A DNA stretch of 64,000 nucleotides from Azolla caroliniana (lineage: Eukaryota; Plantae; Polypodiophyta), in assembly GCA_043228905.1 (NCBI GenBank), contig JBHGNT010000017.1, positions 12,710,001 to 12,774,000 on the forward strand, in the 5' to 3' direction. The translations under genes and the position numbers were made by a program. Below are positions 1,405 through 56,362 of the stretch, piece after piece; position 1 is the first letter of the stretch, and each line of letters opens with the position of its first letter. Below the pieces are notes generated by a model. It worked only from the letters and a program-made list of their open reading frames with translations. It had not been told where the DNA came from and searched no databases.

Positions 1405-1417
1405 GTCGGGTTCACCA
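1401..1417 (-). promoter_or_regulatory. Primer binding site, tRNA-Trp
   Basis: TGGTGAACCCGACGTGA is complementary to the plant tRNA-Trp 3' end (...TCACGTCGGGTTCA-CCA, recalled sequence). Identical to the PBSs at 12070 and 35010. Confidence 0.85.
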
Positions 1418-1421
1418 ACTG

Positions 1422-12065: not shown

Positions 12066-12069
12066 TATT

Positions 12070-12088
12070 TGGTGAACCCGACGTGAAT
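12070..12088 (+). promoter_or_regulatory. Primer binding site, tRNA-Trp
   Basis: TGGTGAACCCGACGTGAAT, 4 nt after the LTR end. Confidence 0.9.
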
Positions 12089-12108
12089 AGGCGGCAGAGG
12101 AGTAGAAG

Positions 12109-14233
12109 ATGAGGGGGTCGGACCTCGCAGAAGCCATGGCTTCGGCTGTGGACCGTATAGTGAGTGCGCGCGAAGGCACCGGTGCCCTTGATAGGGCTAT
12201 CGAGGTGGTTGTCGGTACGATCGGCCGGTTTAGTGGGAAGGATGCCACGAGCTACTTGGCGTCCTACCGGGCTGAGATGGTAATGAGGGACATTCCGGAA
12301 GAGAGGCGTCTAGCCGGATTCCCTCGAGTGGCGATGCCAGGCATCCATGCGGAGGTGCTCGAGGTACGGGCCGAGAGCCGGACCTGGGAGGAGTTCGAAG
12401 GTCGGCTCCTCGAAAGATACGGGCTTGAAGATGCGCTTCGACTTTCGAACCGGGACTTCATGGAGTGGGTGGAGACCCCCGACAAAGGAAGGAACACGTC
12501 AGTGCTCGTCCGGGTGTTTGAGGAACGCTTCGCATGCCTCTCGGTGCTTGACCAGACCGTTCTGGACACAAGCCGTGTCCTATTGTTTGTTAAGTCAGTT
12601 GATGAGTGGGATCGGGAGCAGGTATGCCTCCTATTGGAGACTGATGATGGGCTGACGGCCGACTGGGCCGTGGTGAAAAGGGTCTGTGGCTGTTTCGACA
12701 AATGGCGGGAATGGGTTGACAAAGGATCGACTGGGCGGGCTCTGTCACAACGAGGAAGCTCGACCAAACACCACCAACGTGAAGGGAAGAGACCCGGGAT
12801 TGGCTCGAGATCGGATTGGCTTCGACCAGCATGGTCAAGGGCTCGTCCGGGGGAGCAGCTCTGGAGGAACTTATGCGGATGGTAAGGGATCTCCAGATCG
12901 CCCAGGCACGGAGGGACGGTAGTGAACAGGGCCGTGACCGACGACCTCTGGCTAGAAAAAGGTGCATGTGGTGTGACGCGGTTGGGCACATCCGAAAGGA
13001 CTGCGGGGACTTCGTCGAGGCGATGAGAAGCAACGTGGTGTACCTGTGGAACGGTCGGGTGCACGCCAGCGAGACCCGAAGGGCCCTAGACCTGAACGTC
13101 GGGCGAGGAGGTATGAAAAGGTTGATGGAGGAGGCGGTGGCTCATCACGCAGAGACCGTCCACTACTCGGTGTCAGCTGGTATTCGGGTCGGAGGTGGCG
13201 AGGCCCCGAAGACAAACAAAGCCGGGTTCTGGCCAACGATGCTAGAAGGCCTCGCCGGCGCGCGACTAAGGAAAGAAGAGGCGAACCGCGCGGAAAAACG
13301 GGTCCGGGAGGTAACCGGGTGGAGTGACCTGGTGGAAGAAAAGACAGGCTTCGTCGAAGCAGCTTGTCAAAATTACGAGGCTCTGGTGGAGGACAAGCGG
13401 GTAGGAAAAACCGGAGGGGCCGAGCCCTCGCAACGATATGAAACTCGGTCCGGGCAAAGGCGGAATGAGGTCGATGCAACTGGCGCCCAGGATAATCCCA
13501 AGAGGGGCGGGTACCGGCTGGGCACAAAAATCGAAAGATCCATGGACCTGCGAAAGGTCCTGGAAGAACGAATCCTCGACAGCAAGGTGGAGCTATCGCT
13601 GAGGGAAGTGCTCGGGATCGCCAAGAAGGAGTTTCACGACTCCATCATAGACTTGGTGAAGAGGAAGAGGTTGTCACAGAGACAGAACCGGAGAAGCGGG
13701 TGGAGGTGCAAACGACGCACATAGAGGACATGGCGCTGGAAGACGAGTTGGCGGAGAGCCACTATTCGAGGCCACACTGGGCCAGAGCGACCACGGAGAC
13801 CCCCGTGAAGATCGGAGATGTTCATGAACCGGTGGTGGTGTTGGCGGACCACGGTTCAGAAATCAATTTGATGTCCATGGACTTCTATAAGAAGGGGAAA
13901 TGGCCGATCAACACCAAGCACGGGTGGAAAATACGGGCGGCGACGCATGCCACCGAAGAACTGCATGGAGCCTACCTGAACGTACGAGTAAAGATCGGCG
14001 ATGTCGAGATTGACCAGCACTTCTTCGTGCAGGAGACGCCCTCACATCCGGTTATACTCGGAGAACCGTACATCACGACAGCACAGATGGAGACCAAGGT
14101 GCTGGACAACGGCTCAGCCTATGCGAGGGTGAAGAGCCAGGATGGGCGTCACTCGGTCTAGTTCCTGACGGTGAAACCGAACCATGAGAGGAACCGCGAG
14201 ACCCTCGGGGGCGAAAGCCGGGAGGATTTTTGA
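12109..14233 (+). pseudogene. gag: gag-protease ORF of C (two frameshifts, one premature TAG); natural end ...REDF-stop
   Basis: ORFs 12109-12885, 12816-13724 (CMWCDAVGHIRKDC) and 13700-14161 (LADHGSEINLMS) are collinear with element D. Confidence 0.9.
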
Positions 14234-14290
14234 AGAGGGTTATCAAGGCGTTGGACCGCGATAGTCCGGACACTCCGGGAAAACCCCACA
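14224..14290 (+). promoter_or_regulatory. Putative -1 ribosomal frameshift signal (G_GAT_TTT_TGA + stem GGGTTATC/GATAGTCC)
   Basis: The pol ORF begins in the -1 frame at this heptamer, with a 6-nt spacer before the stem. Conserved in element D. Confidence 0.7.
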
Positions 14291-16559
14291 AGTCTGTGAT
14301 AGCAAAGAAGACCTATGTTATAAGTAGGAAATTTTGGTTCTCCGACAACGGAGGGTGTACGATAGTCGACGTTGTTGGCCGGAAGAAGAGAAGGGCGGAG
14401 GAGCGACTTCGGGCATGTGGCGTCCTCGGCCTCGGAGAGGAAATCAACCGACCCGTGGAGGCGGTCTCTTTCAACGATACCTTGGGGGAGCTGCGGGAGG
14501 TAGTCGGAGGAGTCCTTAAAGAGGACCGGACAATTCCAGTATGTTCGGAAAAGATGTACGAAGTCATCGCGGACTTCAGTAGAGGGCTCGAGTCGGATCG
14601 GACGGCCTGGGTGGACACGAGGTACAAGACTGTGGACCGGAAGGTGAGGCCAGTCGTGGCTCCCTTGCCGGAGGGCAGCGAGTTGCAAATACAGGGGGTT
14701 GTGTCAAACCCGAGTTTACGAAATCCGGCCCGCATAGGACACACGTTCACCAACATAACGTTGCGCGAGCTCAAAATCGGTGGGGGCGGCTTCCTACTGC
14801 TGGCGGAAGAGGACCGTTTTCGGGGAATGCTCGGAAGGCACGGGAAGGCTTTCGCATTCTCACCGAAGGAGATCGGGTGCGTAGACCCGACAGTCGTGGA
14901 ACCGATGATGATATTCACGGTACCGCATGTGCCGTGGAGTCTAAAACCGATTCCAGTTCCTAGAGCTCACATCCCGAAGCTGATGGAGCTGTTAAAGCAG
15001 AAGGTCGAGATGGGAATCCTCGAACCGTCGAGTGCCCCATACTCGAATCGGTGGTTTACCGTGCCGAAGAAGGACGGCACGCTGCGCTTTATTCAAGACC
15101 TACACCTGGTCAACAAGGTGACCATTCGAAACGCAGGAATCAGACCGACAATAGACGAGTTCGCGGAGGCCTTCGCCGGAAGGTCGATTTACTCGGTCGG
15201 TGATCTCTACTCGGGGTACGATCAGTTCCAGCTTGCCGTAGAGAGCAGAGACATCACGACAATGCGAACTCCTCTCGGCCTAGTACAGATGTGTACCCTG
15301 CCGCAAGGAGGGACGAACTCGGTGGCTCACATGGTGAACGCAATGAACAAAGTGCTGAGGGATTGTATCCCGGACATCACCATGCCATTTTTTGACGACG
15401 TCCCGATCAAGGGATGCCCGGTGGAGGAAAGGGACGAGACGATCGAACCGGACGGATGCCGGAAATTTGTGGTGACGCACATCGATGACTGCGAGAAGGT
15501 GCTACAGAGGTTGGAGGGCGCGAGGCTCACCTTCTCCGGGGGAAAGTCGGCCTTCGGGCAATCAGAGATCATTGTCGTTGGACACCTATGCGGGTTGTAC
15601 GGCCAGAAACCGTCTCCGGCTAAGGTAGAAGCCATCTCCGCGATGAAGAACGATTGTAGCTCGGTCACGGAGGTTCGGAGGTTCTTGGGAGCGTACGCGT
15701 TCTACCACATATGGATCCCGCATTACGCTCACGTCACGGAGCTGTTATACGGGTTGCTGAAAAAGGGGCGAAAATTCGAGTGGAGAGATGAGCATACGGA
15801 GTCTATCCGGAAGATGAAGGAAGCACTTGCCGCGGCTCCAATTTACGGAAAGAGCACTCCAATTTACGTAACGGTAGACACGAGTCCGACCGGGATCGGA
15901 TGGGTCGTCAACCAAGAGGACGAGGACGGCATGCGTTCCCCGATCCGGTTCGGCGCGAAGGTCCTCAGCGAGCGATAGCGAGGATACGCCCAGGTTAAAC
16001 GCGAGCTCTCGGGTATCGTTTCGGCGGTAAAGGCCGATAAAGACTACCTGATCGGGACAAAGGTAATTATCGAGACGGACTGCCTGCCGATCCTTGGCAT
16101 GGTTTCCGGATGCATGACGCCGGACCTGGCAATCCTCAGGTGGATAACGTACATCAAGTTCTTGAATCCGGAAATAGGACACATTTCCGGGAAAGACAAC
16201 GCCATGGCCGACATGCTTTCAAGGGCGAGGTTCGAAAACGACGGCGGCATGGTTTCAGAGGACGAGGAAGTCGGCGTGGACTTCTTCGAAGCGGCTTACG
16301 TAACAACCGGTAGGGAATGCTCTCCAACGCTTAACGATTTCGACGAGAGCAGGTACGACGGGGAGTGGCTGCAGATCGGTTGGTTCCTGAAAACAATGAC
16401 ACCAGACGCGGCATGGACAACGGACGAGGCCAACCGGATTCGGAAGAAAGCCTACCGATTCTTTCTCCGGGACGGATACATATGGAAGCACCCGAAGAAG
16501 AGGAACGACATCCCGCTCCGAGTGGTGGTGAAGAAGGAGGAACAGGAGGATTTGCTGGC
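14230..16559 (+). pseudogene. pol: pol (RT-RNase H-start of IN) of element C, premature stop at 15976
   Basis: SAPYSNRWFTVPKKDGTLRFIQDL; DLYSGYDQF; LPQGGTNS; PFFDD; VTVDTSPTGIG. Confidence 0.92.
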
Positions 16560-18310
16560 TGTTGAGTATTCGACGTTCCTTATGTCTGACGCTCGGCCAC
16601 AACCGAGATTCTTTTCATACACAGAAAAACAGGTAATGAAACGCGACACAAAGGGGAGAAATGGTACACAGGAGGTTTACGTGGAAAACCCCAAAATAGG
16701 GGAAAAACCACGACAGCCCACAGGCTGCAAACTGTCACTATGTAGGAATATACAACAATGAGTTCACTGAGGCGACGACCTCGTGCTCTCAGATCTTCGC
16801 CACAGGCGGCGGTTACAACAGAGGCAACGACCTCGTCTCTCTCTCTCTCTCTCTCTCTGTACAGTTATGCACTCTCGCTTCTTCTTGCACCAACAATGAA
16901 GAATCACAACAACAAAAACGACACACCTAAAAGTTTGCCCTAAGTCATATTTATACTAATATGACTTCTCGGCTATTTACAAATGTAGCCTCGATGGGCT
17001 CTCAGAAACATATTTACGAATATGTCTCTTCCTCTGGTTCATACCGGGCCTGCACCATCCGGCTCTTCGTAGTCGGGTACTCCCCATCCGGTTCATACCG
17101 TTTCTACACCATCCGGCTCTCCGCAGTCGGGTACTCCCCATCCGGTTCATACCGGGTCTACACCATCCGGCTCTCCGCAGTCGGGTACTCCCCATCCGGT
17201 TCATACCGTTTCGTCGGCACTGTTCTTCTCCCTTCCCATCCGGAGGGACCTGTCTCCCAACAAACTCCCCCTTCACTCCGGCATGGGGTGTCTTTCCAGC
17301 CCGATCCTCTTCCGGCATGCGTCCAGCTTGTCGGGTGTCAGCACTTTGGTCAGCATATCTGACCCGTTCTCGGCCGTGTGGATCTTCGCCAGTGCGAACT
17401 CCTGGTCATCTACCCTTTCCCGGATCCAATGATACCTCCGCTGGATATGCTTCGTCCGGGAATGGTAGGCCGCATTCTTAGCAAGGTGGATGGCACTTTG
17501 ACTATCGCAGTAGAGTCGGTATTCCTCTTGCCGGATACCGAGCTCTCCGATGAAGTCCTTCATCCATAATATTTCCTTGCCGGCTTCTACAGCCGCCATG
17601 TACTCCGCCTCTGTGGTTGACAATGCAACCGTCTTCTGCAGCCTCGACTGCCACGAAACAGCTCCCCCTGCATATGTCATCACATACCGGATGTAGACCG
17701 GCTGGTATCCACATCAGCCGACATGTCCGAATCGGTGAAACCGTCTAGTTGAGGTTTCCCGGAGCCGAATCGGAGACACATATTTGAAGTGCCCTTCAAA
17801 TACCGGAGTACCCATTTGACCGCGTTCCAATGCTCCTTGCCGGGATTACTCATGAACCGGCTCACCACTCCGACTGCGTATCCAATGTCCGGTCGGGTAC
17901 AAACCATTGCGTACATCAAGCTCCCGACGGCAGAGGCATATGGAATCTTCATCATATCTACCTTCTCTCCTTTTGTCTTCGGGTTTTGCTTGCCGAACAA
18001 CTTGCAGTTTGCCGGGAGTGTCGATCCGACCGGTTTTGCATCTGACATGTTGAACCGGTGAAGCACCTTTGTCACATACTTCTCCTGTGACAGCCATAAT
18101 TGCTTCACTGACCGGTCCCGAATGATGTGCATCCCCAACATCTGTCTTGCCGGACCCAAGTCTTTCATTGAGAAGGTCCGGTTGAGAGCCTTCTTCAGCA
18201 TCCGTATTTTGCCTTGATCTCATCCGACGATCAACATGTCATCCACGTACAGGAGAAGTATCAGGAAGTCCCCTCCTTCGAACTTCTTCACGAACACGCA
18301 GTGATCGGCC
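16560..18310 (-). mobile_element. Ty1/copia 3' fragment (RT end, RNase H, PPT, 3' LTR 17262-16560) nested in element C
   Basis: YVDDML region; PYASAVGSLMYAMVCTRPDI; VALSTTEAEY; HSRTKHI; PPT TGAAGGGGGAG; LTR ends TGTTG...CAACA. Confidence 0.9.
17036..17212. repeat. 54-bp tandem repeat (~3.2 copies) in the copia LTR
   Basis: GGTTCATACC starts at 17036, 17090, 17144 and 17198. Confidence 0.9.
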
Positions 18311-18830
18311 GACCGAGCTGATGTTAGGACAGAAGCCGATCATGCCAACAGAGCGAACGATCTCCTCGTGGGCCACGGTGGACTGGAGGGATGAGATGAG
18401 CCGGGAGGAACTGTTGGCGGCGCGGATTCGACAGCTCGAGCGGAGGCCGGAGGACGTAGAGCGAGCCGCGGAGAAACTTCGGGTAGCGAGGATAAGGAAC
18501 AAAGCCCGGTTCGATCGAACACACCGGTTCAGGCCAAGGAAGATTGAGGAAGGCGACTGGGTGCTAGTCTACGACAGCAGCCTCGACAATCAGCACAGGG
18601 CCACGCGGAAGTTTGCGAGGAGGTGGTTCGGGCCTTACGTAGTAATAGGCGCCAACGGCAATGGGACGTACCATCTCGCGGAGCTCGACGGTACAAGAAT
18701 GGCGATACCGGTAGCGGGGAAGAGGATCAAAGCGTTCAAGAAACGGCACGACGGGGAGCCGGAGCTAGGGGGCATGGACAGCGACAACGAGCAGCCCGAG
18801 GCGGAGGATGAACCAGTAAACGAGGAATAA
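18311..18830 (+). pseudogene. Integrase C-terminus (GPY/F motif) of element C
   Basis: GDWVLVYDSSL...KFARRWFGPYVV; homologous to the end of the 36902-40582 ORF. Confidence 0.9.
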
Positions 18831-18906
18831 AAGCAAGGATTGGTTTTCTCCCGTAGGAACCCAATTTTGGCGCATACCGGTGGATGCGCGGTTAGGTGGG
18901 GGCGGA

Positions 18907-19598
18907 TGTCGTGAAGAAAACCGTCCCCAGGCGCAAACCGTGTATAGTGTGTGTGAACCGGCCCTTACACGTGGGCACATCCCTTGTCGTATAGTAGATA
19001 GGTAGGCACAAAGGTTAAATCCTAGGTAGCAATATTCTATAAGGGAAATCGATGAGTAGCTCTATCCGAAAGGACAGAGAATTAATGTGATGTAAACGGG
19101 TGAAACGGCCTCCCTCCTTGAGCTATAAAAGAGAGGGAGACGGGGGAGAGAAGATATCGCGCGCTAGAGGGGACGAAGTGCTGTCGGACTGGGACAGAGC
19201 TCTTCTTCTCTGTCGTTCTCCATAGCTTCTTTTGCGCATGTTCTCAGGAAGCTGATCCTGCTCCGTGGAACGCCCGTGTGCTTCTGGCAGAATCTCCATC
19301 TTGCTCTCTTGTGTGCGAGGGTGATCAGGTGTCGGCATCCATCCCACTGACCCGATCGGCTGTAACCCTTCAAGTCGTCTACATACATGCAAATACATAC
19401 ACATATTTATATACATGCGCTAGTGTTCTCAACTCGTGTCTCCTGTGTTGTTGGGCCGCGTCCCCGTGCGCTTCTTTGTCTATACGTGTGTTGTTTCTCT
19501 CTCTCTCTCTCTCACTCTCCCCTTTCCCTCACCTATTCCCCGGTCCAAGACCCAGTGGTACCGCCTTGTTCTCCACGCACGCGCGTAACAACGCGACA
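18907..19598 (+). repeat. 3' LTR of element C
   Basis: Follows the PPT-like GGTTAGGTGGGGGCGGA and matches the 5' LTR. Confidence 0.95.
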
Positions 19599-34264: not shown

Positions 34265-35049
34265 TGTCCGCATCAGCCAACATATCCGACTCAGTGAATC
34301 CGTCAAGTTGGGGTTTACCAGAGCCAAACTGGAGGCACATACTCGAGGTGCCTTTCATATACCGGAGTATCCACTTGACCGCATTGTCGTGAAGAAAACC
34401 GTCCACAAGCGGAATCGGTGCACCGGAGCGTAGGAACCGGCTCTTCATGCACGTGCGCCTTATGTTGTGCATAGGAGATCCTAGGCAGGCAGATTCGGTA
34501 GGTAGGAAGTAAAGGGGAAACAGCTCCTTCCTTGCCTATAAAAGGAGGGAGACGAGGAGGGGCGAAGGGATCGCGGAGAGTCGAGGACGAAGTGCTGTCA
34601 GTTTGTGTGCGAAGGCTTCTCTCTCTCTCTGGTTCGCAAACTCCATAGCTTCCTTCTATGTAGGTTTCGGGAGGCTCGCGCTGCTCTAAGGAATGCCCGA
34701 GTGCTTCCGGCAGCACCTCCAACCTACTTCTTCCTTTCTGTGTGTTTACGAACAGGTATCAGCATCTGTTCGCCGGCCTGTTCGGTTGTAACCGACTTCG
34801 TGTTTTGTTGTTTGTCTTTGTTAATACACACATACATTCATGTCTCTCTGTGTTGCTGTCCCACTCGCTTCTTTGTGTCGAAGGGCCGTGTCCCTGTGAA
34901 TCTACTCTCGCACGTAGTGGGTCTCTTCTCCTCTCTCTCTTGCTCTTCGGTGCAGGACCCCCGAGGTCCCGCCTCATTCCACGCATCCACGAGGAATACC
35001 TCGACATCTTGGTGAACCCGACGTGAAAGAGGCGGCAGAAGAGCAGAAG

Positions 35050-37154
35050 ATGAAAGGGTCGGATCTTGCGGAGGCCATCGCTTCGGCCGTGGATCGGATA
35101 CTGAGCGCACGCGAGGGCTCCGACGCCCTCGACAGAGCCATTGAGGCGGTCGTCGGTACGATCGGCCGGTTCAGCGGAAAGGATGCCACGAAGTATTTGG
35201 CGTCCTACGGGGCGGAAATGCTGATGCGGGACATTCCGGAAGAGAGGCGTCTTGCCGGGTTTCCTCGAGTGGCGATGCCGAGCATCCATGCGGAGGTGCT
35301 CGAGGTGCAGACGGAGAGACGTACCTGGGAGGAGTTCGAAGGCCGACTCCTAGAAAAATACAGGCTGGACGACGCACTCCAGCTTTCGAAATGGGACTTC
35401 ATGGAATGGGTGGAGTCCCCCGGCAAGGGAAGAAACGCGACGGCACTCCTCCGGGAGTTCGAAGAACGCTTTGCGCGCCTTTCGGCGCTTGACCGAACCG
35501 TTCTGGATACGAGCCGAGTCCTACTGTTCGTCAAGTCGGTGGACGAGCGGGACCGGGACCAAGTCGGCTCCTTGTTGGAAACCGAGGACGGGCTGACAAC
35601 CGACTGGGCTGCGGTTAAGAGAGTCTGTGGCCGTTTCGATAAACGGCGAGAATGGGCTGACAACGGGGCGGCCGGTCCGGGCTCTGTCACATCAAGGAGG
35701 CTTGAACCGGCACCGCAAGTGCGAAGGGAAGAAACCCGGGAATGGCTCGAAACCGGTCCGGCTTCGACCGGCATGGTCAATGGCTCGTCCGGAGGAGCAA
35801 CGCTGGAGGAGTTGACGCGGGCGATAAAGGATCTCCAGATCGCCCAGACTCGAAGGGAAGGCGGCGAGCTGGCTCGTGACCGACGGCCGGCAACGGGGAA
35901 CAGGCGCATGTGGTGCGACGAGGTTGGCCACATTCGGAAGGACTACGGCGATTTTGCAGAGGCGTTGAGGAACCGGGTGGTGTACCTGTGGGAAGGCCGG
36001 GTGCACGCCGGCGACACCAGGAGGGCCCTGAACCGAAACGACGGGCGAGGAGGAATGAAAAGACTGATGGAAGAGGCAGCGGCCCGACACGTGGAGGCCA
36101 TCCACTACTCGGCATCGGCTGGCATTCGGGTCAGGGGCAGCGAGGCCCGAAAGGAGGGCAAAGACGGATTTTGGTCGGCAATGCTGGAAGGTCTTGCCGG
36201 CGCACGGCTAAAGAAAGATGAAACGGACCGCGCTGAGAGACGGGTCCGGGAAATAACCGGCTGGAGCGATCCAGTTGAGGAGAAGACGGGCTTTGTAGAA
36301 GCCGCCTGCCGGAACTACGAGGCTCTGGTTGAAGACAAACGGGTGGGGAAAGCCGGATTCGGGCAATGACGGTACGAGACCCGATTCGGGCAATGACGGA
36401 ACGATGCCGGTGGGTCCAGCCCGCAAGATAACCCCAGGAAGGGCGGATACCGACTGGGGACGGAAATAGAAAGGACTACGGACCTACGAAAGGTCCTAGA
36501 AGAACGGATCCTCGACAGCAAAGTGGAGCTGTCATTGCGAGAGGTGCTAGGGATCGCCAAGAAGGAGTTCCACAACTCCATTGTGGACCTGGTGAAACGG
36601 AAGAGGCTGTCGACGGAGACGGAACCGGAAAGACCGATGGAGGTGCGGACGACGCACATCGACGACATGGCGATGGAAGACGAGTGGGCGGAGAGCCACT
36701 ATTCGAGGCCACACTGGGCCCGAGCGACCACGGAGACCCCGGTAAAGATCGGAGATGTTCAGGAACCGGTGGTGGCATTGGTGGACCACGGTTCGGAAAT
36801 AAACCTGATGTCCATGGACTTCTATAAGAAGGGGAAGTGGCCGATCAACACCAAGCACGGGTGGAAGATACGGGCGGCGACGCGCGCCACCGAGGAACTG
36901 CATGGGGCCTGCCCGAACGTGCGAGTCAAGATCGGCGACGTCGAGATTGACCAGCACTTCTTCGTACAGGAGACGTCCTCGCACCCGGTCATATTACGGC
37001 GGCGCGAATGGAGACCAAGGTGCTCGACAATGGTTTGGCCTACGCGAGGGTCAAAAGCCAGGACGGGTGCCATTCGGTGCAATTTCTGACGGTGTGGCCG
37101 AACCACGAGAGAAACCGCGAATCCCTCGGTGGCGAGAACCGGGAGGATTTTTAG
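35050..37154 (+). pseudogene. gag: gag-protease ORF of D (in-frame TGAs at 36367 and 36394, 16-nt deletion near 36993); natural end ...REDF-TAG
   Basis: ORFs 35023-36369 and 36523-37089 share a frame. LVDHGSEINLMS protease motif. Aligns to element C. Confidence 0.9.
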
Positions 37155-37211
37155 AGAGGGCTGCCAAGGCGTGGGGCCGAGACAGCCCGGACACTCGGAA
37201 AGGACCCCACG
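37145..37211 (+). promoter_or_regulatory. Putative -1 frameshift site G_GAT_TTT_TAG followed by an H-type pseudoknot
   Basis: Stem 1 GGGCTGCC 37158-37165 / GACAGCCC 37181-37188; stem 2 CGTGGGG 37170-37176 / CCCCACG 37205-37211. pol is in the -1 frame. Confidence 0.75.
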
Positions 37212-40200
37212 ACTGTACGATAGGTAGAAAAATTTGCTTCTCCAACAACGGAGGGTGTATGATAGTCGGCATCGTCGGCCGAGAAAAGACAAGGGCGGAT
37301 GTGCGACTTCGAGCGTGCGGAGTTCTCGGCCCGGACGAGGAAATCAGCGGAGCCGTGGAGCCGGTCTCCTTCGACGACACCTTGGGAATGCTGAGGAAGG
37401 TAGCCGGAGAAGACCTTAACGAAGACCGGACGATACCGGTATGTTCTGAAGAGATGTACGAAGTCATCGAGAACTTCATTCGGGGGCTTGGGTCGGATCG
37501 GACGGCCCGAGTTAGCACGAGGTACAAGGCTGTGGACCGGAAGGTAAGGCCAGTCGCGGCACCCTTGCCGGAGGGTAGCGAGTCCCGAATCAAAGGGGTG
37601 GTATCGGACCCCAGTTTACGAGATCCGGCCTACATAGGACACACCTTCACCGACGGAACGCTCCGGGAGCTCAAAATCGGTGGGGGCGAGTTCCTACTGC
37701 CGGCGGAGGAAGACCGGTTTCGGAGAATGCTCGGAAGGCACGGGAAAGCATTCGCATTCTCACCGGAAGAGATCGGGTGCGTAGACCCGACGATCGTGGA
37801 GCCGATGGTGATATTCACGGTACCGCATGTACCGTGGAATCTCAAGCCGATTCCAGTACCGAGAGCTCACATCCCGAAGTTGCTGGAGCTATTGAGGCAG
37901 AAAGTCGATATGGGTATTCTCGAACCGTCGAGCGCGCCATACTCGAACCGATGGTTTACCGTACCAAAGAAAAACGGAACATTGCGCTTCATTCAGGACC
38001 TGCAACCGGTCAACAGAGTGACCATCCGGAACGCAGGAATCGGACCGACCGTAGACGAGTTCGCTGAGGCCTTCGCCGGAAGGTCGATTTACTCGGTCAG
38101 TGATCTGTACTCGGGGTATGACCAGTTCCAACTAGCCGTGGAGAGCAGAGACATTACGACGATGCGAACTCCCCTCGGCCTAGTGCGAATGTGTACCCTG
38201 CCACAAGGAGGGACCAACTCGGTGGCCCACATGGTGAATGCAATGAACAAAGTACTGAGGGATTGCATCCCGGACATCACCATGCCATTTCTAGACGACA
38301 TCCCTATCAAGGGGTGCCCGGTGGAAGAGAAGGACGAGACACTCGGGCCGGACGGATGCCGGCGATTCGTAGCAACACACATCGACGACTACGAGAAGGT
38401 GCTACAAAGGCTAGAGGATGCGAGGCTCACCTTCTCCGGGGAGAAATCGGCCTTCGGGCAATCAGAAATCCTGGTGGTCGGGCACCTATGTGGACCATAT
38501 GGCCGGAAGCCGTCTCCGGCAAAGGTAGAAGCCATCTCTGCGATGAAGACCGACTGTAGCTCGGTTACGGAAGTTCGGAGGTTCCTGGGGGCATGCACAT
38601 TCTACCACATATGGATCCCGCATTACACCCACGTTGCGGAACCGCTATACGGGTTGCTGAAGAAGGGGCGAAAATTCAAGTGGCGAGACGAGCACATGGA
38701 GTCGGTCCGGAAGCTGAAGGAAGCTCTTGCGGCAGCACCGACGCTCCGAAAGGCTGTCTACGAGAAAGGTACCCCGGTATACATAACGGTGGATACGAGT
38801 CCAACCGGGATCGGATGGGTCGTCAACCAAGAAAACAAGGACGGCATTCGGTTCCCGATCCGATTCGGCGCAAAGGTCCTCAGTGAGCGACAGCGAGGGT
38901 ACGCCCAGGTTAAATGCGAACTCTGGGGTATCGTTTCGGCAGTAAAGGCCGACAAAGACTACCTGATCGGGACAGAAGTGATTATCGAGACGGATTGCCT
39001 GCCGATTCTCGGCATGGTTTCCGGATGCGCGACACCGGACCTGGCGATGCTCAGGTGGATAGCGTACATCAAGTCCCTGGACCCGGAGATACGACACATT
39101 TCCGGAAAAGCCAACGCCATGGCCGACATGCTTTCGAGGGCGAGGTTTGATGAAGAGGGCGGCATGGTTTCTGAGGACGAAGAAGTCGGCGTGGACTTCT
39201 TCGAGGCGGCGTACGTGACGACCGATGGGGCGAGCACTCCGGCACTTAACGGCTTCGACGAGAGCAAGTACGACGGCGAGTGGCTGCAGATCGGTGGGTT
39301 TCTGAGGACAATGACGTCGGATGCGTCATGGACGAGGGACAAGGCCAACCGGATCCGGAAGAAAGCATACCGATTCTTCCTCCGGGACGGACACTTATGG
39401 AAGCACCCAAAGAAGAGGAACGGCGTCCCGCTCCAGGTGGTGGCGATGAAGGAAGAACAGGAGGAGCTGCTGACGGCCTACCACGACAGCCCTTGGGTTG
39501 GACACCGTGGAACGTGGGCCACGTTCGAGAAGATAAAGGGGAAGTACTGGTGGCCGGGACTGTACCGGGACGTGCATCGGTTCGTGACGACTTCCGAGAG
39601 CTGTCAGATGCACTCCATAGTCCGACATCGGGACGAGCTTCACCCTACGTACCCTCTAACCATCCACTTCAAATGGATGGTAGATCTGGTGACGATGCCG
39701 ATGGGAGAAGGACAGATGCGGTATCTGGTCCTGGCTCAGGAAGATCTGATGAACCAGGTAGAAGGCCGAGCCCTTCAGAACAAGACGACCGCAGCCGTAT
39801 GTCGGTTCCTAATCGAGGACATGATATGCCGGTACGGGTGCGTCGGGAAGATCGTGGCTGATCGCGGGGAGTTGGACGCCGAAGAGGCCGAGGAGTTGTT
39901 CGATCGGCTAGGAGTCAAGCTCTCGCTTACCACTGCGTATAATCCGGAGGCGAATGGGAAGGTGGAGCGCGGACACGGACCGATCGTCAAAGCGTTAGTT
40001 CGGGCATGCGGAGGTCGAGTCGGGAACTGGCCACGGCTGCTGCCTTACGCGTTGTGGGCGGACCGAACTACGCACAGTTTGGTAACCGGATTCATGCTGG
40101 CAGAGCTCATGTTTGGGAAAAAGCCGATCATGCCGATAGAACGTACGATCTCCTCATGGGCAACCGTGGACTGGAGAGACAAGATGAGCCGGGAGGAACT

Positions 40201-40582
40201 GTTGGCGGCGCGCATACGACAGCTCGAGCGAAGACCGGAGGACGTGGAGCAGGCCGCGGGAAAGATTCGGGTGGCAAGGACGAGGAACAAAGCCCGGTTC
40301 GACCGAATGCATCGGCTCCGACCGAAGAAGTTCGAGGAAGGCGACTGGGTGCTAGTCTATGACAGCAGCCTCGACAACCAGCACCGAGCGACATGGAAGT
40401 TCGCAAGAAGGTGGTTCGGGCCTTACGTGGTACAAAGCGCCAACGACAACGGGACGTACCATCTGGCGGAACTTGACGGCACGAGAATGGCGACACCGGT
40501 AACTGGGAAGCGGATCAAAGCGTTCAAGAAGCGTCACGACGACGAGCCGGATCCAGTTAACCTGAACCGCGACGACGAATGA
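37145..40582 (+). CDS. pol: Pol polyprotein (RT-RNase H-integrase), uninterrupted; probably entered by frameshift
   Basis: Part of ORF 36902-40582: PFLDD, ITVDTSPTG, YHDSPWVGHRG, WMVDLV, VADRGE, YNPEANGKVERGH, WFGPY. Confidence 0.93.
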   Translation, partial: GFLERAAKAWGRDSPDTRKGPHDCTIGRKICFSNNGGCMIVGIVGREKTRADVRLRACGVLGPDEEISGAVEPVSFDDTLGMLRKVAGEDLNEDRTIPVCSEEMYEVIENFIRGLGSDRTARVSTRYKAVDRKVRPVAAPLPEGSESRIKGVVSDPSLRDPAYIGHTFTDGTLRELKIGGGEFLLPAEEDRFRRMLGRHGKAFAFSPEEIGCVDPTIVEPMVIFTVPHVPWNLKPIPVPRAHIPKLLELLRQKVDMGILEPSSAPYSNRWFTVPKKNGTLRFIQDLQPVNRVTIRNAGIGPTVDEFAEAFAGRSIYSVSDLYSGYDQFQLAVESRDITTMRTPLGLVRMCTLPQGGTNSVAHMVNAMNKVLRDCIPDITMPFLDDIPIKGCPVEEKDETLGPDGCRRFVATHIDDYEKVLQRLEDARLTFSGEKSAFGQSEILVVGHLCGPYGRKPSPAKVEAISAMKTDCSSVTEVRRFLGACTFYHIWIPHYTHVAEPLYGLLKKGRKFKWRDEHMESVRKLKEALAAAPTLRKAVYEKGTPVYITVDTSPTGIGWVVNQENKDGIRFPIRFGAKVLSERQRGYAQVKCELWGIVSAVKADKDYLIGTEVIIETDCLPILGMVSGCATPDLAMLRWIAYIKSLDPEIRHISGKANAMADMLSRARFDEEGGMVSEDEEVGVDFFEAAYVTTDGASTPALNGFDESKYDGEWLQIGGFLRTMTSDASWTRDKANRIRKKAYRFFLRDGHLWKHPKKRNGVPLQVVAMKEEQEELLTAYHDSPWVGHRGTWATFEKIKGKYWWPGLYRDVHRFVTTSESCQMHSIVRHRDELHPTYPLTIHFKWMVDLVTMPMGEGQMRYLVLAQEDLMNQVEGRALQNKTTAAVCRFLIEDMICRYGCVGKIVADRGELDAEEAEELFDRLGVKLSLTTAYNPEANGKVERGHGPIVKALVRACGGRVGNWPRLLPYALWADRTTHSLVTGFMLAELMFGKKPIMPIERTISSWATVDWRDKMSREELLAARIRQLERRPEDVEQAAGKIRVARTRNKARFDRMHRLRPKKFEEGDWVLVYDSSLDNQHRATWKFARRWFGPYVVQSANDNGTYHLAELDGTRMATPVTGKRIKAFKKRHDDEPDPVNLNRDDE

Positions 40583-43500
40583 TCCGAAACCGAGGAAGAA
40601 CCGACGGGCGGAGAATGAAGGTTGGACCGGTTTTTCTCCGTCCCAACACAATCTGGCGCATGCCGGTGGATGTGCGGTTAGGTGGGGGCGGATGTCGTGA
40701 AGAAAACCGTCCACAAGCAGAATCGGTGCACCGGAGCGTAGGAACCGGCTCTTCATGCACGTGCACCTTATGTTGTGCATAGGAGATCCTAGGCAGGCAG
40801 ATTCGGTAGGTAGGAAGTAAAGGGGAAACGGCTCCTTCCTTGCCTATAAAAGGAGGGAGACGAGGAGGGGCGAAGGGATCGCGGAGAGTCGAGGACGAAT
40901 TGCTGTCGGTTTGTGTGCCAAGGCTTCTCTCTCTCTCTGGTTCGCAAACTCCATAGCTTCCTTCTGTGCAGGTTTCGGGAGGCTCGCGTTGCTCTGAGGA
41001 ATGCCCGAGTGCTTCCGACAGCACCTCCAACCTACTCCTTCCTTTCTGTGCGTTTACGAACAGGTATCGGCATCTGTTCGCCGGCCTGTTCGGTTGTAAC
41101 CGACTTCGTGTTTTGTTGTTTGTCTTTGTTAATGCACACATACATTCGTGTCTCTCTGTGTCGCTGTCCCACTCACTTCTTTGTGTCGAAGGGCCGTGTC
41201 CCTGTGAATCTACTCTCCCACGTAGTGGGTCTCTTCTCCTCTCTCTCTTGTTCTTCAGTGCAGGACCCCCGAGGTCCCGCCTCATTCCACGCATCCGCGA
41301 GGAATACCTCGACAGCGTTCTAGTGCTCTTTTCCGGGATTGTTCATGAACCGACTCACCACTCCGATTGCAGATCTAATATTTGGCCAAGTGCACACCAT
41401 TCAATACATTAGACTTCCGACTACAAAGGAATATGGAATCTTCATCATATCCATCTTCTCTACCTTTGCCTTTGGGATTGGCTTTCCAGATAGCTTGCAG
41501 TTTGGAGGGAGTGTCGATCCGACATGTTGAACCATTGAAGCAGCTTTATCACGTACTTCTCCTATGACATCCACAACAACTTCTTCGACCGGTCCCAGAT
41601 GATGTGCATCCCCTAAACCTGTCTTGCTGGACCCCAGTCTTTCATTGAGAAGGTCCGGTTTAGGGCCTTACTCAGCATGTGTATCTTGACTTGGTCTCAT
41701 CTGACGATCAACATGTCGTCAACGTCCAGAAACAATATCAGGAAATCTCCTCCGTCAAATTTCTTCACAAACACACAATGATCAGCTTGCGTCTTGTGGT
41801 ACCCTTGATCCATCATGAAGGAGTCGAACTTCCAGTACCATTGCTAGGGGGCTTGCTTCAAGCCGTATAAGCTCTTCTTCAGTCGGCACACTAGTTGTTC
41901 CTTCCCTTTCTTCTCAAATCCTTCCGGTTGATGCATTTAGATCTCTTCTTCGAGGTCACCATGTAGGAATGTCGTCTTGACGTCCAATTGCTCTGCCTTG
42001 AGTTCCATGCTTGCCGCTATGCTCAATACCCTCCGGATGGATGTCATCTTTACTACCGGGGCAAAGATCTCATCGAAATCCACACCTTTCTTTTGTTAGA
42101 AACCCTTCACCAAGATTCGGGCCTTGTACCTCGGTGGATTTCCGGCATATACCGGTTTCAGCTTGTACACCCACTTATTCCAGAGTGCTCTCTTTCCTTT
42201 CAATAGCTCTGTCAATTCATATGTGTGGTTCTCATGCAGGGAATCCATCTCGTCCTGCATGACACTTAACCACTTGTAGGTGTGGGTGTCTTTCTTTGCT
42301 TCTTCGAAGCTTTCCGGCTCCCCCTCATCGGTCAGCAATTCGTGCTCTGCATCTGGAAATCTCCAGGGGCTCTTCTCTCTCTAAGAGGGTATCTTCATCC
42401 TTGGTTTTCAGAAACCAGTTCATCTATTTGTTCCAAATCCGAATCTGTTTCAGGGTCTTGTCCGGTTCTAGTTTCAGCTTCCCCTTCTTCTTCTTTGATC
42501 GGTTCAGTTTCTACTCCGAATCCGGCCAGTTCTTCGAGTGTCATCCGGCTTCCGGCCGGAATGGTCCTCAGCTCCTTCAGTTGATCTTTGCCTGTCGACC
42601 CAGAATTCATTATCCTTTTCTCAGACTCCCTGTCGACAATGGTCTTGTCCTCCATGAAGATATCGCCGTATCCAAGGAATATGCATGGTGTGGACTTCGG
42701 ATCTAGCTTTTCTCTCTTGTCCTTTGCAACATGTGAGACACCCGAACACCTTCAGATGCCAGTAAGACACATGTTTACCGGTCCATACTCTCTGTGGTGT
42801 GTCTCCGTCCAAGGGTGTTGAGGGTGATTTGTTTATCACATACGTCGTCGTCATCAGTGCCTTAGTCCAAAACGTCTTGGGTAGCTTTACATGTGCCAGC
42901 ATGCTCCGGACTCTCTCCATCACGATCTGGTTCATCCGTTCGGCCAGCTCATTTTGTTCCGGCGTCTTCGGCATAGTGAATTCGAGTTAGATTCCCTTCG
43001 ATCAACATTACTCCTCGAACTGCCCCCGGTACTCTCCTTCGATATCTGCTCGAACAGCCTTCAGCTTCCGACCGGTTTCTCTTTCCACTCTCGCATGGAG
43101 TTCCTTGAAGATAGACAACACCTGATCCTTCGTCTTCAACGGTGAGACCCACAACTTTCGGCTATGGTCATCTATGAACATCACGAAGTACTGCCATCTG
43201 GCATGTCACGTCATGTCCACTTGACACACATCGGTATGCACTAGCTCCAGTGGTGCATTCCGTCTCCTCGGTGGTCTTGATTGGAAGGAGGTTCGGTTTT
43301 GTTTGGCGGCCAAGAAATCGGTGCACTTCTCAAGATGCACGTCTTTCACCTCCGGAATGAGGTTGTCTTCAGCAAGTCTTCTCATCCGCTTTTGGCTCAT
43401 ATGACAAAACCTTTTGTGCCACAGCTCACCGGTAGTGTCGGATGCTACATTCACTTCTTCCCGGCATATCCGAGCATGCATCAAATACAATGTCTTGATC

Positions 43501-51154: not shown

Positions 51155-54100
51155 GGAATCGGACCGACCATAGACGAGTTCGCGGAGGCCTTCGCCGGAA
51201 GGTAGATTTACTCGGTCGGTGATCTGTACTCGGGGTATGACCAGTTCCGACTAGCCGTGGAGAGCAAAGACATTACGACGATGCGAACTCCCCTCGGCCT
51301 AGTGCGAATGTGTACCCTGCCACAAGGAGGGACCAACTCGGTGGCCCACATGGTAAATGCAATGAACAAGGTACTGAGGGATTGCATCCCGGACATCACC
51401 ATACCATTTCTAGACGACATCCCGATCAAGGGGTGCCTGGTGGAAGAGAAGGACGAGACACTCGGGCCGGACGGATGCCGGCGATTCGTGGCAACACACA
51501 TCGACGACTGCGAGAAGGTGCTACAAAGGCTAGAGGTTGCGAGGCTCACCTTCTCCGGGGAGAAATCGGCCTTCGGGCAATCAGAAATCCTGGTGGTCGG
51601 ACACCTATGCGGACCATATGGCCGGAAGCCGTCTCCGGCAAAAGTAGAAGCCATCTCCGCGATGAAGACCGACTGTAGCTCGGTTACGGAAGTTCGGAGG
51701 TTCCTGGGGGCGTGCGCATTCTACCACATATGGATCCCGCATTACGCCCACGTTGCGGAGCCGCTATACGGGTTGCTGAAGAAAGGGAGAAAATTCGAGT
51801 GGCGAGACGAGCACACGGAGTCGGTCCGGAAGCTGAAGGAAGCTCTTGCGGCAACACCGGCGCTCCGGAAGGCTGTCTACGAGAAGGGTACCCCGGTATA
51901 CATAACGGTGGATACGAGTCCGACCGGGATCGGATGGGTCGTCAACCAAGAAGACGAGGACGGCATTCGGTTCCCGATCCGATTCGGCACGAAGGTCCTC
52001 AGTGAGCGACAACGAGGGTACGCCCAGGTTAAACGCGAACTCTGGGGTATCGTTTCGGCAGTAAAGGCCGACAAAGACTACCTGATCGGGAAAGAAGTGA
52101 TTATCGAGACGGATTGCCTCCCGGTTCTCGGCATGGTTTCCGGATGCGTGACACCGGACCTGGCGATGCTCAGGTGGGTAGCATATATCAAGTCCCTGGA
52201 CCCGGAAATACGACACATTTCCGGAAAGGACAACGCCATGGCCGACATGCTTTCGAGGGCGAGGTTTGATGACGAGGGTGGCATGGTTTTGGAGGATGAA
52301 GAAGTCGGCATGGACTTTTTCAAGGCAGCGTACGTGACGACCGATGGGACGAGCACTCCGGCGCTTAACGGCTTCGACGAGAGCAAGTATGACGGCGAGT
52401 GGCTCCAGATCGGTGGTTTCTTAAGGACAATGACATCGGATGCGTCGTGGACGAGGGACGAGGCCAACCGGATCCAGAAGAAAGCATACCGATTCTTTCT
52501 CTGGGACGGATACTTATGGAAGTACCCGAAGAAGAGGAACGACGTCCCGCTCCGGGTGGTGGCGATGAAGGAAGAACGGGAGGAGCTGCTGACGGCCTAC
52601 CACGACAGCGCTTGGGCTGGACACCGTGGAACGTGGGCCACGTTCGAGAAGATAAAGGGGAAGTACTGGTGGCCGGGACTGTACCGGGACGTGCATCGGT
52701 TCGTGACAACTTGCGAGAGCTGTCAGATGCACTCCATAGTCCGACATCGGGATGAGCTTCACCCTATGTACCCTCCGACCATCCACTTCAAATGGATGGT
52801 AGATCTGGTGACGATGTCGATGGGGGTAGGACAGATGCGGTATCTGGTCCTGGCTCGGGAAGATCTGACGAACCAGGTGGAAGGCCAAGCCCTTCAGAAC
52901 AAAACGACCGCGGCCGTATGTCGGTTCCTGATCGAGGACGTGATATGCCGGTACGGGTGCGTCGGGAAGATCGTGGCTGATCGCGGGGAGTTGGATGCCG
53001 AAGAGGCCGAGGAGTTGTTCGACCGGCTAGGAGTCAAGCTCTCACTTACCACTGCGTACAATCCGGAGGCGAATGGGAAGGTGGAGCGCGGACACAGACC
53101 GATCGTCAAGGCATTAGTTCGGGCATGCGGAGGTCAAGTCGGGAACTGGCCGCGGCTGTTGCCTTACGCGTTGTGGGCGGACGGAACTACGCACAGTTCG
53201 GTAACCGGATTCATGCCGGCAGAGCTCATGTTTGGGCAGAAGCCGATCATGCTGATGGAACGTACGATCTCCTCATGGGCAACCGTGGACTGGAAAGACG
53301 AGATGAGCCGGGAGGAACTGTTGGCGGCGCGCATACGACAGCTCGAGCGAAGACCGGAGGACGTGGAGTAGGCTGCGGGAAAGCTTCGGGTGGCAAGGAC
53401 GAGGAACAAAGCCCAGTTCGACCGGACGCACTGGCTCCGACCAAAGAAGATCGAGGAAGGCGACTGGGTGCTAGTCTACGACAGCAGCCTCGTCAACCAG
53501 CACCGAGTGACACGGAAGTTCGCAAGAAGGTGGTTCGGGCCTTACGTGGTACAAAGCGCCAACGACAACGGGACGTACCACCTGGCGGAGCTCGACGGCA
53601 CGAGAATGGCGATACCGGTAGCTGGGAAGCGGATCAAAGCGTTCAAGAAGCGTCACGACGACGAGCCGGATCCGGTTAACCTGGACCACGACGACGAACG
53701 ATCCGAAACCGAGGAAGAACCGACGGGCGGGGAATGAAGGCTGGACCGGTTTTCTCTGTCCCAACTCAATTTGGCGCATGCCGGTGGATGCGCGGTTAGG
53801 CGGGGGCGGATGTCGTGAAGAAAACCGTCCACAAGCGGAATCTGTGCACCGGAGCGTAGGAACCGGCTCTTCATGCACGTGCGTCTTATGTAGTACATAG
53901 AAGATCCTAGGTAGGTAGATCCGGTAGGTACTTAATGGGAAACGGCTCCTTTCTTGCCTATAAAAGGAGGGAGACGAGGAGGAGTGAGGGATCGCGGTGA
54001 GAGAGGACGAAGTGCTGTCGGGTTGTGGGCCGAAGGCTTCTCTCTCTTCCATACTCCGTAGCTTCTTTCTGCACAAGGTTTCGGGAGGCTCGCGCTGCTC

Positions 54101-54430
54101 TGAGGAATGCCCAAGTGCTTCCGGCAGCACCTCCAACCTACTCCTTTCTTTTTGAGCGTTTACGAACAGGCATCGGCATCTGTTCGCTGGCCTGTTCGGT
54201 TGTGACCAACTTCGTGCTTCTTGTTGTTTGTCCTTGTTAATATATATATACATACATTCGTGTCTCTCTGCGTCGTGTCCCACTCGCGTCTTTGTGTCGA
54301 AGGGCCGTGTCCCTGTGAATCTACGCCCACTCGTAGTGGGTCCCTTCCCTTCTCCTTTGTCTCTTGCTCTTCGGTACAAGACCCCCGAGGCCCCGCCTCA
54401 TTCCATGCATCCGCGAGGAATACCTCGACA
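51155..54430 (+). mobile_element. pol: Element E: 5'-truncated copy of the D family (pol 51155-53737 with TAGs at 51202 and 53369; 3' LTR 53811-54430)
   Basis: Near-identical to 38036-41314. LTR TGTCG...CGACA is followed by GCGT. Confidence 0.95.
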
Positions 54431-56362
54431 GCGTGAATCGAGAATAAACATCCGACCCTCTCTTCGTCCACGTGCGATGAGTCAGCCCTCTTTTTCGATG
54501 AAGCAACCGCCTTGATTAAATCGAACTTGCATCCCTTGCTCTACAATTTGGCCGACGGAGACCAAATTCTTCGTAATGGCCGATACATGCAAGACATTTT
54601 TAATGTAATTTTGCTTACCTTCTTTTCCGAACAGAACATTGCCAATGTGCCGAATCGGGTGCGTAGTGTCGTCTCCGGTTTCGACATAGCCGGGTCGGTC
54701 CGGCTCTCGAAGTTCTTAGAACCATTCTTGATGCGATGTCATATGGTTTGAGGTACCGGAATCGACGAACCATACGTCTTCCGGGTGTGTTGAGGTAGCG
54801 GCTGACAGATTTTGCTCTATGTTTCATCATGAACATTCCGCCATTGTCGGAGTTGTGCGCATACATTCCGCCATGATCTTCGTACTCGGAGTTGTGCCCG
54901 TACATTTCACCACGGTAGGAGTTGTGTGCATACATTCTGCCATGATCTTCGTAGTCGGATTTGTGTGCGTAATTCGTGAGTTGTCGGCTTGTGGAAGCCG
55001 ATTCACGCATCTTCTTTCAGCACTCTTCTTTGTGGTGGCCGAGCTTTCCGCAATATCCGCATTTGGTTGCGTTTTGACGGCTCGGGCTAGAGTGGAAGCT
55101 CCCCCTTCTTGCGAAGGTTCCTCATTGGCCTCCGTTTTGCAGCCGAAATTGGGAGTTGTTGTCATAGGTCGGACCTTGTTCGCCTTGTACTTGGCCGAAT
55201 CGGCCTCTCGCTCGTCCGCGTCCTCTTCCTCCATTAGAGTGCGTGTAGAGCATGTGGCCTTCCAACTCATTGCTCCTTGTACGCACGTGGTTTTCTTCGA
55301 CCAATAGCATTGATTGGAGCTCGATAAAGGAGGGAGATTTCTCCCGTGCTAGGCCGCCGAGGCATATTTGCACCATCTCATCATCATCTATACTTACGCT
55401 TATTGAGCCGAGCAAGTCGCAAAGTTCCTTGATCTTCAAGGTGTATGTCGTGATGGACATGTCCCTTTGTTGAATGTTGTTCAACTCTTGGCATAGTTGA
55501 AGCTTCCTCGTGGTCGTGTTGGCGGCGAAAATCTTTCGTAGATTTTCCCACGCTTCCTTTAGCGTCTTGGCTTCTCGAATGTAACCGAGCATGTGGTCTT
55601 GAACACATGTCGCCATACAATACATCACGCAGCTTGCGGTTTGCTTCCATGTCGCGTATCTGGGAGCTGCTTTGGCGGGTTGATCTTCATGCGCTCCTTT
55701 GATGTAGCTCCAATAGCCTTGTCCGACAAGGTATTGGTGCATCTTGTACTCCCAAGATGTGAAGTTGTTTCGATCCAACTTCTCGGTAGGGAGAGCGCTC
55801 CCCATTTGAGTATTCATTATGTTGATTCTTCTTCTTCTTCTTCTTCTCTCTTCGAATGCGAGCTATGTAGCGAAGCTACGATAGCTATGAGCCGGTTCTT
55901 GGTCGTCGGCGTGGAGCACAACACACGAGCTCGATGAGGCAAATGGGCTAGATCGAGCTACCAAATTACTCTGATACCATGTTAAGAATCAAGAGATGGA
56001 TTCTTGTGAAGCGGAATAGGTGTGAACTGTGTGTGTATGAGAGAGAGAGAGAGAGAGAGTGAGTGAAACACAGAGAATACGCAAGGTAAAAGTATATTGA
56101 CAAAGGAGAAAGACTCAACATTGTACAAGGAGGGAGGAGGGTGCTTTATATAGTCACCCTCTCTCTTCATTAACTACATGACTCATGAAGAGTGGGGAAT
56201 GTTAAAGCTCATAAGTTATGTGTCATAGAATATGATTCTATGACTCATACTAAATGTTAGAATACAAAGTGGTGATTTAATGGTGACTCTTGACCGTTGG
56301 AGTGTCTATTCACTCTCAAGGTGAGTTCACACACTAGACCAAGTTGAGCTTGATTCTCAACA
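54431..56362 (-). mobile_element. Ty1/copia of the H-like family: 5' LTR 56362-55980, PBS 55979-55968, gag-protease remnant
   Basis: EKLDRNNFTSWEYKMHQYL; TGGTATCAGAGT; TGTTGAGAATC...TTAACA termini. Confidence 0.88.
54835..54980 (-). repeat. 30/39-bp coding repeats (HNS.YEDHGGMYA) in the copia gag-PR linker
   Basis: GGAGTTGTG..CATACATTC recurs four times. Confidence 0.7.

Follow-up and report, generated by a model that had tools for sequence, protein, structure and literature searches.

The stretch of Azolla caroliniana DNA analyzed here (64,000 nucleotides, called the window) carries two retrotransposon copies, elements C and D, whose reverse transcriptase-RNase H-integrase (RT-RH-IN) frame lies behind a stop codon, and the locus raises the question of how this frame is translated. 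In both copies a protease-like frame ends in ...HERNR(E/D)..REDF*, and the RT-RH-IN frame follows at -1. The original prediction explained this by a -1 ribosomal frameshift at the heptamer G_GAU_UUU, followed by a stop and a pseudoknot; its coordinates for heptamer and stop were confirmed in both copies, as was the -1 relation of the frames (Table 1). Comparison with intact copies and divergent relatives indicated that the junction of these Phygy-like Gag-protease (Gag-PR) and RT-RH-IN genes is very probably a programmed -1 signal, with a likely -2 signal in a sister clade.

In intact elements, two ORFs overlap only around G_GAU_UUU, the downstream one being offset by -1. The upstream ORF usually ends with the codon directly after the heptamer, and two predicted interleaved stems keep their pairing across cassettes while their sequence turns over. 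Because a stop, a slippery sequence and a predicted pseudoknot are kept between PR and RT, ribosomes likely slip back one base at this point. Most ribosomes would terminate at the adjacent stop and release Gag-PR, and a minority would stall on the pseudoknot with GAU and UUU in the P and A sites, re-pair on GGA and UUU, and read on (..E-D-F then L-E-R..) to give Gag-PR-RT-RH-IN. The outcome would be protease made 1:1 with Gag and a rationed supply of RT and integrase. The same heptamer is reported to drive -1 frameshifting of PEMV (pea enation mosaic virus) in wheat germ extract, where re-pairing in the A site is essential and a nearby stop helps (PMC4737148).

Table 1. Coordinates of elements C and D, the predicted cassettes and related features (window positions unless a locus is named)
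Feature	Position	Strand	Remarks
5' LTR of element D	34385..35006	+	96.5% identical to 40693-41314
Primer-binding site, tRNA-Trp (D)	35010..35026	+	complement found at a genomic tRNA-Trp(CCA) gene, 3' end
gag-protease region of D	35050..37154	+	DUF4100; stops and frame change in D, relatives intact
Aspartic protease motif DHG (D)	36784-36792	+
Slippery heptamer G_GAU_UUU / GGATTTT (D)	37145..37151	+
RT-RNase H-integrase frame of D	37145..40582	+	open; -1 relative to the gag-PR end
6-nt spacer (D)	37152..37157	+	Gag-PR stop TAG (37152-37154) plus 3 nt
Pseudoknot stem 1, 5' strand (D, predicted)	37158..37165	+
Pseudoknot stem 2, 5' strand (D, predicted)	37170..37176	+	within the stem 1 loop
Interstem segment (D)	37177-37180	+	4 nt
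Pseudoknot stem 1, 3' strand (D, predicted)	37181..37188	+
16-nt loop between stem strands (D)	37189-37204	+
Pseudoknot stem 2, 3' strand (D, predicted)	37205..37211	+
3' LTR of element D	40693..41314	+	match to 34385-35006
Element C	11375..19598	+	decayed, other sequence inserted; LTRs 11375-12065 and 18907-19598
Cassette of element C	14224..14290	+	heptamer 14224-14230, TGA 14231-14233, stem 1 14237-14244/14260-14267
Third copy	51155..54434	+	5'-truncated, begins within RT, without junction
Sister-clade cassettes AG_GTT_TTT	L161:2835-2912; L163:2497-2574; L191-L220; L245-L259		5-nt spacer, same predicted pseudoknot

The Gag-PR/RT junction in the window and in the same genome

Both window copies are decayed upstream of the junction, by stops and a frame change inside gag-PR in D and by several lesions in C. 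Two copies broken in this way could not by themselves exclude a shared old mutation, and the layout therefore had to come from intact copies elsewhere in the genome. In relatives where it is intact, the gag-protease frame is 726 codons long from stop to stop. Stem 1 begins 6 nt past the heptamer and forms 7/8 pairs in D and 8/8 in C, including the A-U/G-C swap described in the original prediction, and the D loop pairs with the downstream strand at 7/7 positions. Stem 2 had also been called degenerate in C; this was true of the window's own copy C but not of C-like copies, since 22 of the 27 scorable ones keep 6/6 pairs and five keep 5/6. Having a seventh pair in stem 2 is a typical D-subfamily trait, and stem 2 measures 6 bp in most C-like copies and most intact young ones. 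At 37187-37199 of the window, and in intact copies of the same genome, a small long-loop hairpin could compete with the base of stem 1; it was seen in own-genome subfamilies and was left out of the pseudoknot model, and a conformational switch is possible.

A search of the same genome with the RT protein listed 150 matches, whose pol frames were mostly about 1160-1175 codons long, with one of 1872. Twenty long copies, selected mainly for a long pol ORF, were fetched whole. The PR-containing ORF ended at the heptamer-stop, with pol in -1, in 16 of them (one with GAC instead of GAT), and the other four had a premature PR stop, a frame break just before the site, no gag, or a fused frame (one copy each). 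The Gag-PR and pol ORFs overlapped by 13 nt in 9 of the 16 split copies, the smallest overlap in the same-genome set. Because a query containing the site biased the choice of copies, those first retrieved in that way were kept out of the conservation claims, which rest on loci picked by RT protein. Among 50 loci so chosen, 42 had the exact heptamer-TAG, five a variant, one an unrelated match and two no junction match.

Exact-pattern counts over the same genome gave 1373 split sites, three with one T more (fused) and four with one T fewer. The fused copy L091 (G000:C15:18492305-18500305) has the extra T in the slip run and a single 1872-codon ORF; its LTRs are identical at 825/825 positions, so the fusion either dates from a recent insertion or came later, unless the T run was misassembled. 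L242 and L243 are the two further one-more-T sites. Intact copies with PR and RT in one frame, which would speak against frameshifting, were found as a rare single copy (L091) and in no family (3 against 1373). L091 is the chief finding that speaks against a strict version of the prediction, but fused copies are no commoner than those with the opposite one-base indel, and they have not amplified. In most of the young copies L093-L110, a 325-codon third-frame ORF overlaps RT (about 4078-5052 in element orientation), which is probably a by-product of their near identity.

The layout of the intact copies also bears on splicing, which has been shown to remove the stop and join the ORFs in Ogre elements. 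Here the ORFs overlap and are not separated by about 270 bp. There is no conserved donor, the commonest GT offset being shared by 10/26 families, and the commonest YAG offset falls inside stem 1; splicing would also leave the heptamer and its fixed spacer unexplained. Two runs of poly(A) RNA over an intact copy (429 and 237 reads, mixed strand) had no joint or indel listed near the junction, where a depth of about 13 and 6 gives low power and makes this weak evidence against splicing. The RNA reads of the main family are too thin for an expression level or for excluding rare splicing. With the overlap and the missing donor, we consider splicing very improbable and retain a programmed -1 shift as the preferred reading.

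Slip site and predicted pseudoknot across the lineage

A metagenome scan with a pol alignment returned 80 loci, many of them near-duplicates, which reduce to 29 distinct cassettes. A protease upstream of pol, 44-97% identical, made 59 of the 80 loci scorable, and among these relatives pol lay in the -1 frame in 57, in +1/-2 in two and in frame in none. Leaving L182, with its junction deleted and no slip site, outside the count, the slip sites of 58 relatives were GGATTTT (48), GGATTTC (5), GGGTTTT (1), AAATTTT (1), GAATTTT (1) and GGTTTTT (2). As slippery heptamers, G_GAU_UUY accounts for 53/58, G_GGU_UUU, A_AAU_UUU and G_AAU_UUU occur once each, and the remaining two are the -2/+1 clade. The stop adjoins the heptamer in 50/58 relatives, and eight have no adjacent stop. 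In L147, L156, L165, L167 and L188, the Gag-PR stop lies 1-21 codons beyond the heptamer, with spacer and stems kept.

These sites can be set beside transcriptional or reverse-transcriptase slippage on the U5 run, by which an in-frame RNA, and not the ribosome, would supply the fusion. The three genomic copies with one T more are in frame, as slippage would have it, and one is very young. However, the four copies with one T fewer show that such indels are a symmetric background against 1373, and no indel at the run is listed in the RNA reads, at their low depth. Moreover, six of the 58 relatives keep the layout without a five-U run (the five GGATTTC sites have three U and L167 has four), and slippage leaves the pseudoknot unexplained. 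Such slippage is highly unlikely as the source of RT-RH-IN, and ribosomal frameshifting accounts better for these observations.

A test of heptamer invariance had been suggested with the prediction. Over 28 divergent families, the heptamer proved near-invariant with variable flanks, its columns being 88-100% conserved against 27-65% for the 30 upstream columns; neither the 28-family counts nor the alignment and the tree include L113, which has lost the stop. At the first G, which serves as wobble base for the codon before it, the base was G in 13/13 four-fold-degenerate cases (7 amino acids), against a background of 313/1165 (27%) in the upstream PR. This bias reflects selection at the nucleotide level. 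ORF overlap was 16 nt or less in 8/28 families and 10 nt in three, and the value for L156 is an artefact of a broken copy.

RT-RH-IN could also be a separate product, if ribosomes reinitiate or initiate internally past the Gag-PR stop and the RNA structure is an initiation element. Structures beside stops can generally serve reinitiation, and some 120-155 poorly conserved residues lead the pol frame up to its first conserved motif. However, the first Met of the pol frame varies from codon 3 to codon 111 across the 28 families, and no stop interrupts the pol frame across the heptamer in the examined families, with the heptamer conserved at the base level. For these reasons we regard separate initiation as most unlikely and frameshifting as the preferred explanation.

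The 29 cassettes, aligned without gaps, were used for the stem tests. Stem 1, placed by covariation 6 nt downstream of the heptamer and so within the 5-9 nt typical of a stimulatory structure, was 91.4% paired, with 31 double-change cells (13.4% double changes) and compensatory changes at 6/8 pairs. None of 500 shuffles scored as high, and slid registers were 25-42% paired. When helices were placed at 25,407 positions across the RT alignment of 28 families, none attained 80% pairing together with 13% double changes. Within the same genome, G-C, G-U and A-U all occur at pair 3. Stem 2, which pairs the loop of stem 1 with downstream sequence as in an H-type pseudoknot, had a mean of 6.2 bp and a cognate score of 16.4, against 13.3 for non-cognate and 11.6 for shuffled partners (permutation p 5e-5 for cognate against non-cognate, uncorrected for relatedness), and it exceeded all 90 control positions. 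Singly, it reached p<0.05 in 13/29 cassettes and was weak in some families, such as L149 and L156. The covariation for which a test had been suggested is therefore present in stem 1 and, more weakly, in stem 2; as the cassette is also protein-coding and the sequences are related, these counts are not independent events. The interstem segment varies in length among families. Nested folding returned stem 1 in four divergent cassettes; it did not return stem 1 as the minimum-energy fold of D (z -0.56) or in C, whose fold was likewise unremarkable (z -0.71). Rfam frameshift models gave only a chance match to 37000-37400 (E 2.3).

With the heptamer conserved, the stems covarying and fused copies rare, the data support the frameshift reading of the Gag-PR/RT junction, and the putative recoding signal is, by comparison of sequences, real and strongly conserved. 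By the same comparison the frameshift-type junction is lineage-wide; the span of the lineage, the non-adjacent stops and the offset of the sister clade had been missed by the original prediction. In the outgroup L186 (pol about 50% identical, itself with a stop), the protease is followed by G_GGT_TTT-stop and by a strong stem (L186:6593-6670), which suggests that the signal predates the lineage.

A sister clade with the other frame offset

In L161 and L163, Gag-PR ends CAG GTT TTT GAC/TAC TAG and pol lies in the +1/-2 frame. In the same genome, 29/30 loci of the L161 family read ..QVF(D/Y)* with pol in +1/-2, and 85 of the 86 sites of this family are of equal length. The family is young and intact in this genome. 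LTR identity was 99.4-100% in 15 full-length copies, which also showed the tRNA-Trp primer site and flanks of the NCGN type, with pol intact in all 15 and Gag-PR in 11, and dN/dS between the two sister-clade families was about 0.08-0.10 in both ORFs. In a tree of 34 rows (midpoint root, falling on the two most distant rows), the two families formed a 100/100 clade nested among -1 elements, in keeping with a natural change from -1 to -2.

The U run and the pseudoknot of this clade keep their register in the pol frame; the move is confined to the gag frame and shortens the spacer to 5 nt; stem 2 is 8 bp in both families. Because pol is in the other frame and the slip site (AG_GUU_UUU) lies one base closer to the same pseudoknot, ribosomes here probably slip by -2, a reading that we hold with moderate confidence. 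The site offers -2 re-pairing in the A site only, the P-site tRNA being unable to re-pair. Spacers 1-2 nt shorter are reported to favour -2 shifts in vitro (PMC3458567).

The frame relation is the same for +1 and -2, and plant and fungal elements with +1 pol are known (PMC5009743), so that a +1 shift in this clade has to be weighed. UUU_U, which permits +1 re-pairing, is present in L163 and at 8/86 same-genome sites, but 77/86 have UUU_G, a poor +1 partner for tRNA-Phe. In addition, with five U in the run, a -2 slip re-pairs perfectly in the A site, and the ancestral pseudoknot has been kept, with its 8-bp stem 2 in both families and a spacer one base shorter. A +1 shift is rather unlikely on these grounds, a slip that is neither -2 nor +1 is improbable, and -2 is the offset that we favour. 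The chances are about even that one conserved pseudoknot directs -1 in most of the lineage and -2 in this derived, recently active clade through a slip site shifted one base closer. RNA reads on the sister clade numbered 4, 3 and 0 in three runs, with none at the junction, and were too few to test it.

Element identity, known recoding systems and significance

The elements have the LTRs, primer site and domain order (Gag-PR-RT-RH-IN) of Ty3/gypsy LTR retrotransposons. The L-x-D-x-G-S motif of the upstream domain was invariant in an alignment of 18 relatives. Pfam aspartyl protease models matched 12/18 members at E<=0.05 (best 1.6e-5, the first member being below the curated cut-off), and the best PDB match of the protease profile was the Ty3 Gag-Pol polyprotein (E 0.013). 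Judged by these scores, which are weak yet agree with the motif and the position, the domain upstream of the junction is a protease. The closest named homologues were liverwort gene models, with about 52-66% identity.

Phygy is a clade of plant non-chromovirus Ty3/gypsy elements, whose ORF layout is given as 'not determined' and for which the text of the survey on this clade describes no recoding signal (Neumann et al. 2019, PMC6317226). The elements studied here share with Phygy the tRNA-Trp primer site, the 4-bp NCGN target duplication, and an interior filled by the coding region with no chromodomain or extra RNase H match, but are 6.9-8.0 kb long, against 7.7-10.0 kb for Phygy (PMC6317226); D, L091 and L093 measure 6.9-7.4 kb and the sister clade 7.9-8.0 kb. 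The NCGN duplication was exact in L091 and L093, had one change in C and D (GCAT/GCGT flanking D), and was clear in L247, L248, L249, L252 and L259. By primer site and target duplication, the elements match a Phygy-like Ty3/gypsy lineage. At L241, three tRNA-Trp(CCA) genes lie inside 1.5 kb, spaced about 700 nt.

Other features were seen in the window. A Gag-like ORF at 115-1482 (minus strand) follows a similar primer-site sequence (translating as ..GEPDVK..); it has no Pfam match and appears to be either a non-autonomous derivative or a related element. At 2955-5105 (minus strand) there is a 716-codon open frame, acidic, partly gag-like by eye and with no Pfam match. A Copia-type RNase H fragment, recognized by its motif by eye, lies at 63300-63900, with a chance GGATTTT at 63574, and a tandem array of about 24-nt units at 58640-58980.

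In the Tat clade, the break is a spacer or intron in Ogre and a single in-frame stop in Retand, both with an extra RNase H, whereas the frames overlap here; the table of the plant survey lists no lineage with overlapping frames after the protease (PMC6317226). According to a 2016 review, the split-frame elements of plants that were known in 2003 used +1 (PMC5009743). There is also a likeness to plant viruses: in umbravirus PEMV RNA2, G_GAU_UUU has been shown directly, with plant ribosomes and the polymerase in -1 (PMC4737148), and a G_GA-type heptamer is stated for dianthoviruses such as RCNMV, also with the polymerase in -1 (PMC5009743). In both, the stop is at or beside the slip site, as here (PMC4737148, PMC5009743). 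However, these viruses are described as having a bulged hairpin that pairs with a loop kilobases away, in contrast to the predicted local two-stem pseudoknot of about 55 nt. In Rous sarcoma virus, the protease lies in the first ORF. This alpharetrovirus has a -1 shift with a pseudoknot at the end of that ORF (PMC5009743). It differs in being an animal retrovirus, in its heptamer and in the larger size of its structure, and its lineage is unrelated, so that the likeness is convergent. For Skipper, a pro/pol frameshift has reportedly been proposed. Skipper has two ORFs with the protease in ORF2 (PMC5006619), and Tca3 has two ORFs with a break position not stated in the text (PMC4139406); 'frameshift' was looked for in the available text of papers on fungal Ylt1-like elements and is not mentioned there (PMC2864245, PMC3248453). 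The unpaired interstem element of the visna-maedi and LDV pseudoknots (PMC5009743) has a counterpart in the 4 nt of the predicted D structure.

The sister clade resembles the PRRSV nsp2TF site, where G_GUU_UUU yields a -2-frame product and, at GG_GUU_UUU, a -1 slip meets a stop directly after; GAC-type sister copies likewise have an immediate -1 stop (PMC4937337). At the PRRSV site there is no 3' RNA structure, and the shift depends on nsp1beta together with PCBP at a C-rich motif, in contrast to the covarying predicted pseudoknot 5 nt downstream in the sister clade (PMC4937337). As natural instances of -2, the review gives phage Mu, Trichomonas vaginalis virus 1 and the arterivirus site, which is stimulated by protein (PMC5009743). 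The open-access literature, subscription journals being largely outside the search, gave no description of this post-protease signal, and an IMG/VR scan for the cassette pattern gave 54 matches, none a relative. The class of mechanism is textbook; the place it occupies, the group of hosts and the apparent change from -1 to -2 were absent from the literature searched.

If correct, the frameshift would settle the ORF layout of a major retrotransposon group, Phygy, given as 'not determined' in the survey (PMC6317226), and would add post-protease -1 frameshifting, a recoding route unlisted for plant elements in these sources (PMC6317226, PMC5009743). Annotation pipelines would call every intact copy a pseudogene with a frameshift or invent an intron at the junction. 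In liverwort gene models (P0022-P0029 and others), PR and the RT leader are annotated as parts of single proteins, with deletions of variable extent at the junction; judged from the protein models, these look like predicted introns bridging a frameshift. The lineage would also offer some 29 natural, sequence-divergent forms of a single predicted compact pseudoknot for plant ribosomes, and with the sister clade the rule that ties spacer length to -1 or -2 slippage becomes testable on a natural signal pair. If the -2 reading is true, the clade would represent a natural -2 shift driven by RNA structure in eukaryotic ribosomes and would put the mRNA-tension (spacer length) model to an evolutionary test, for which dozens of natural sequence variants would be usable.
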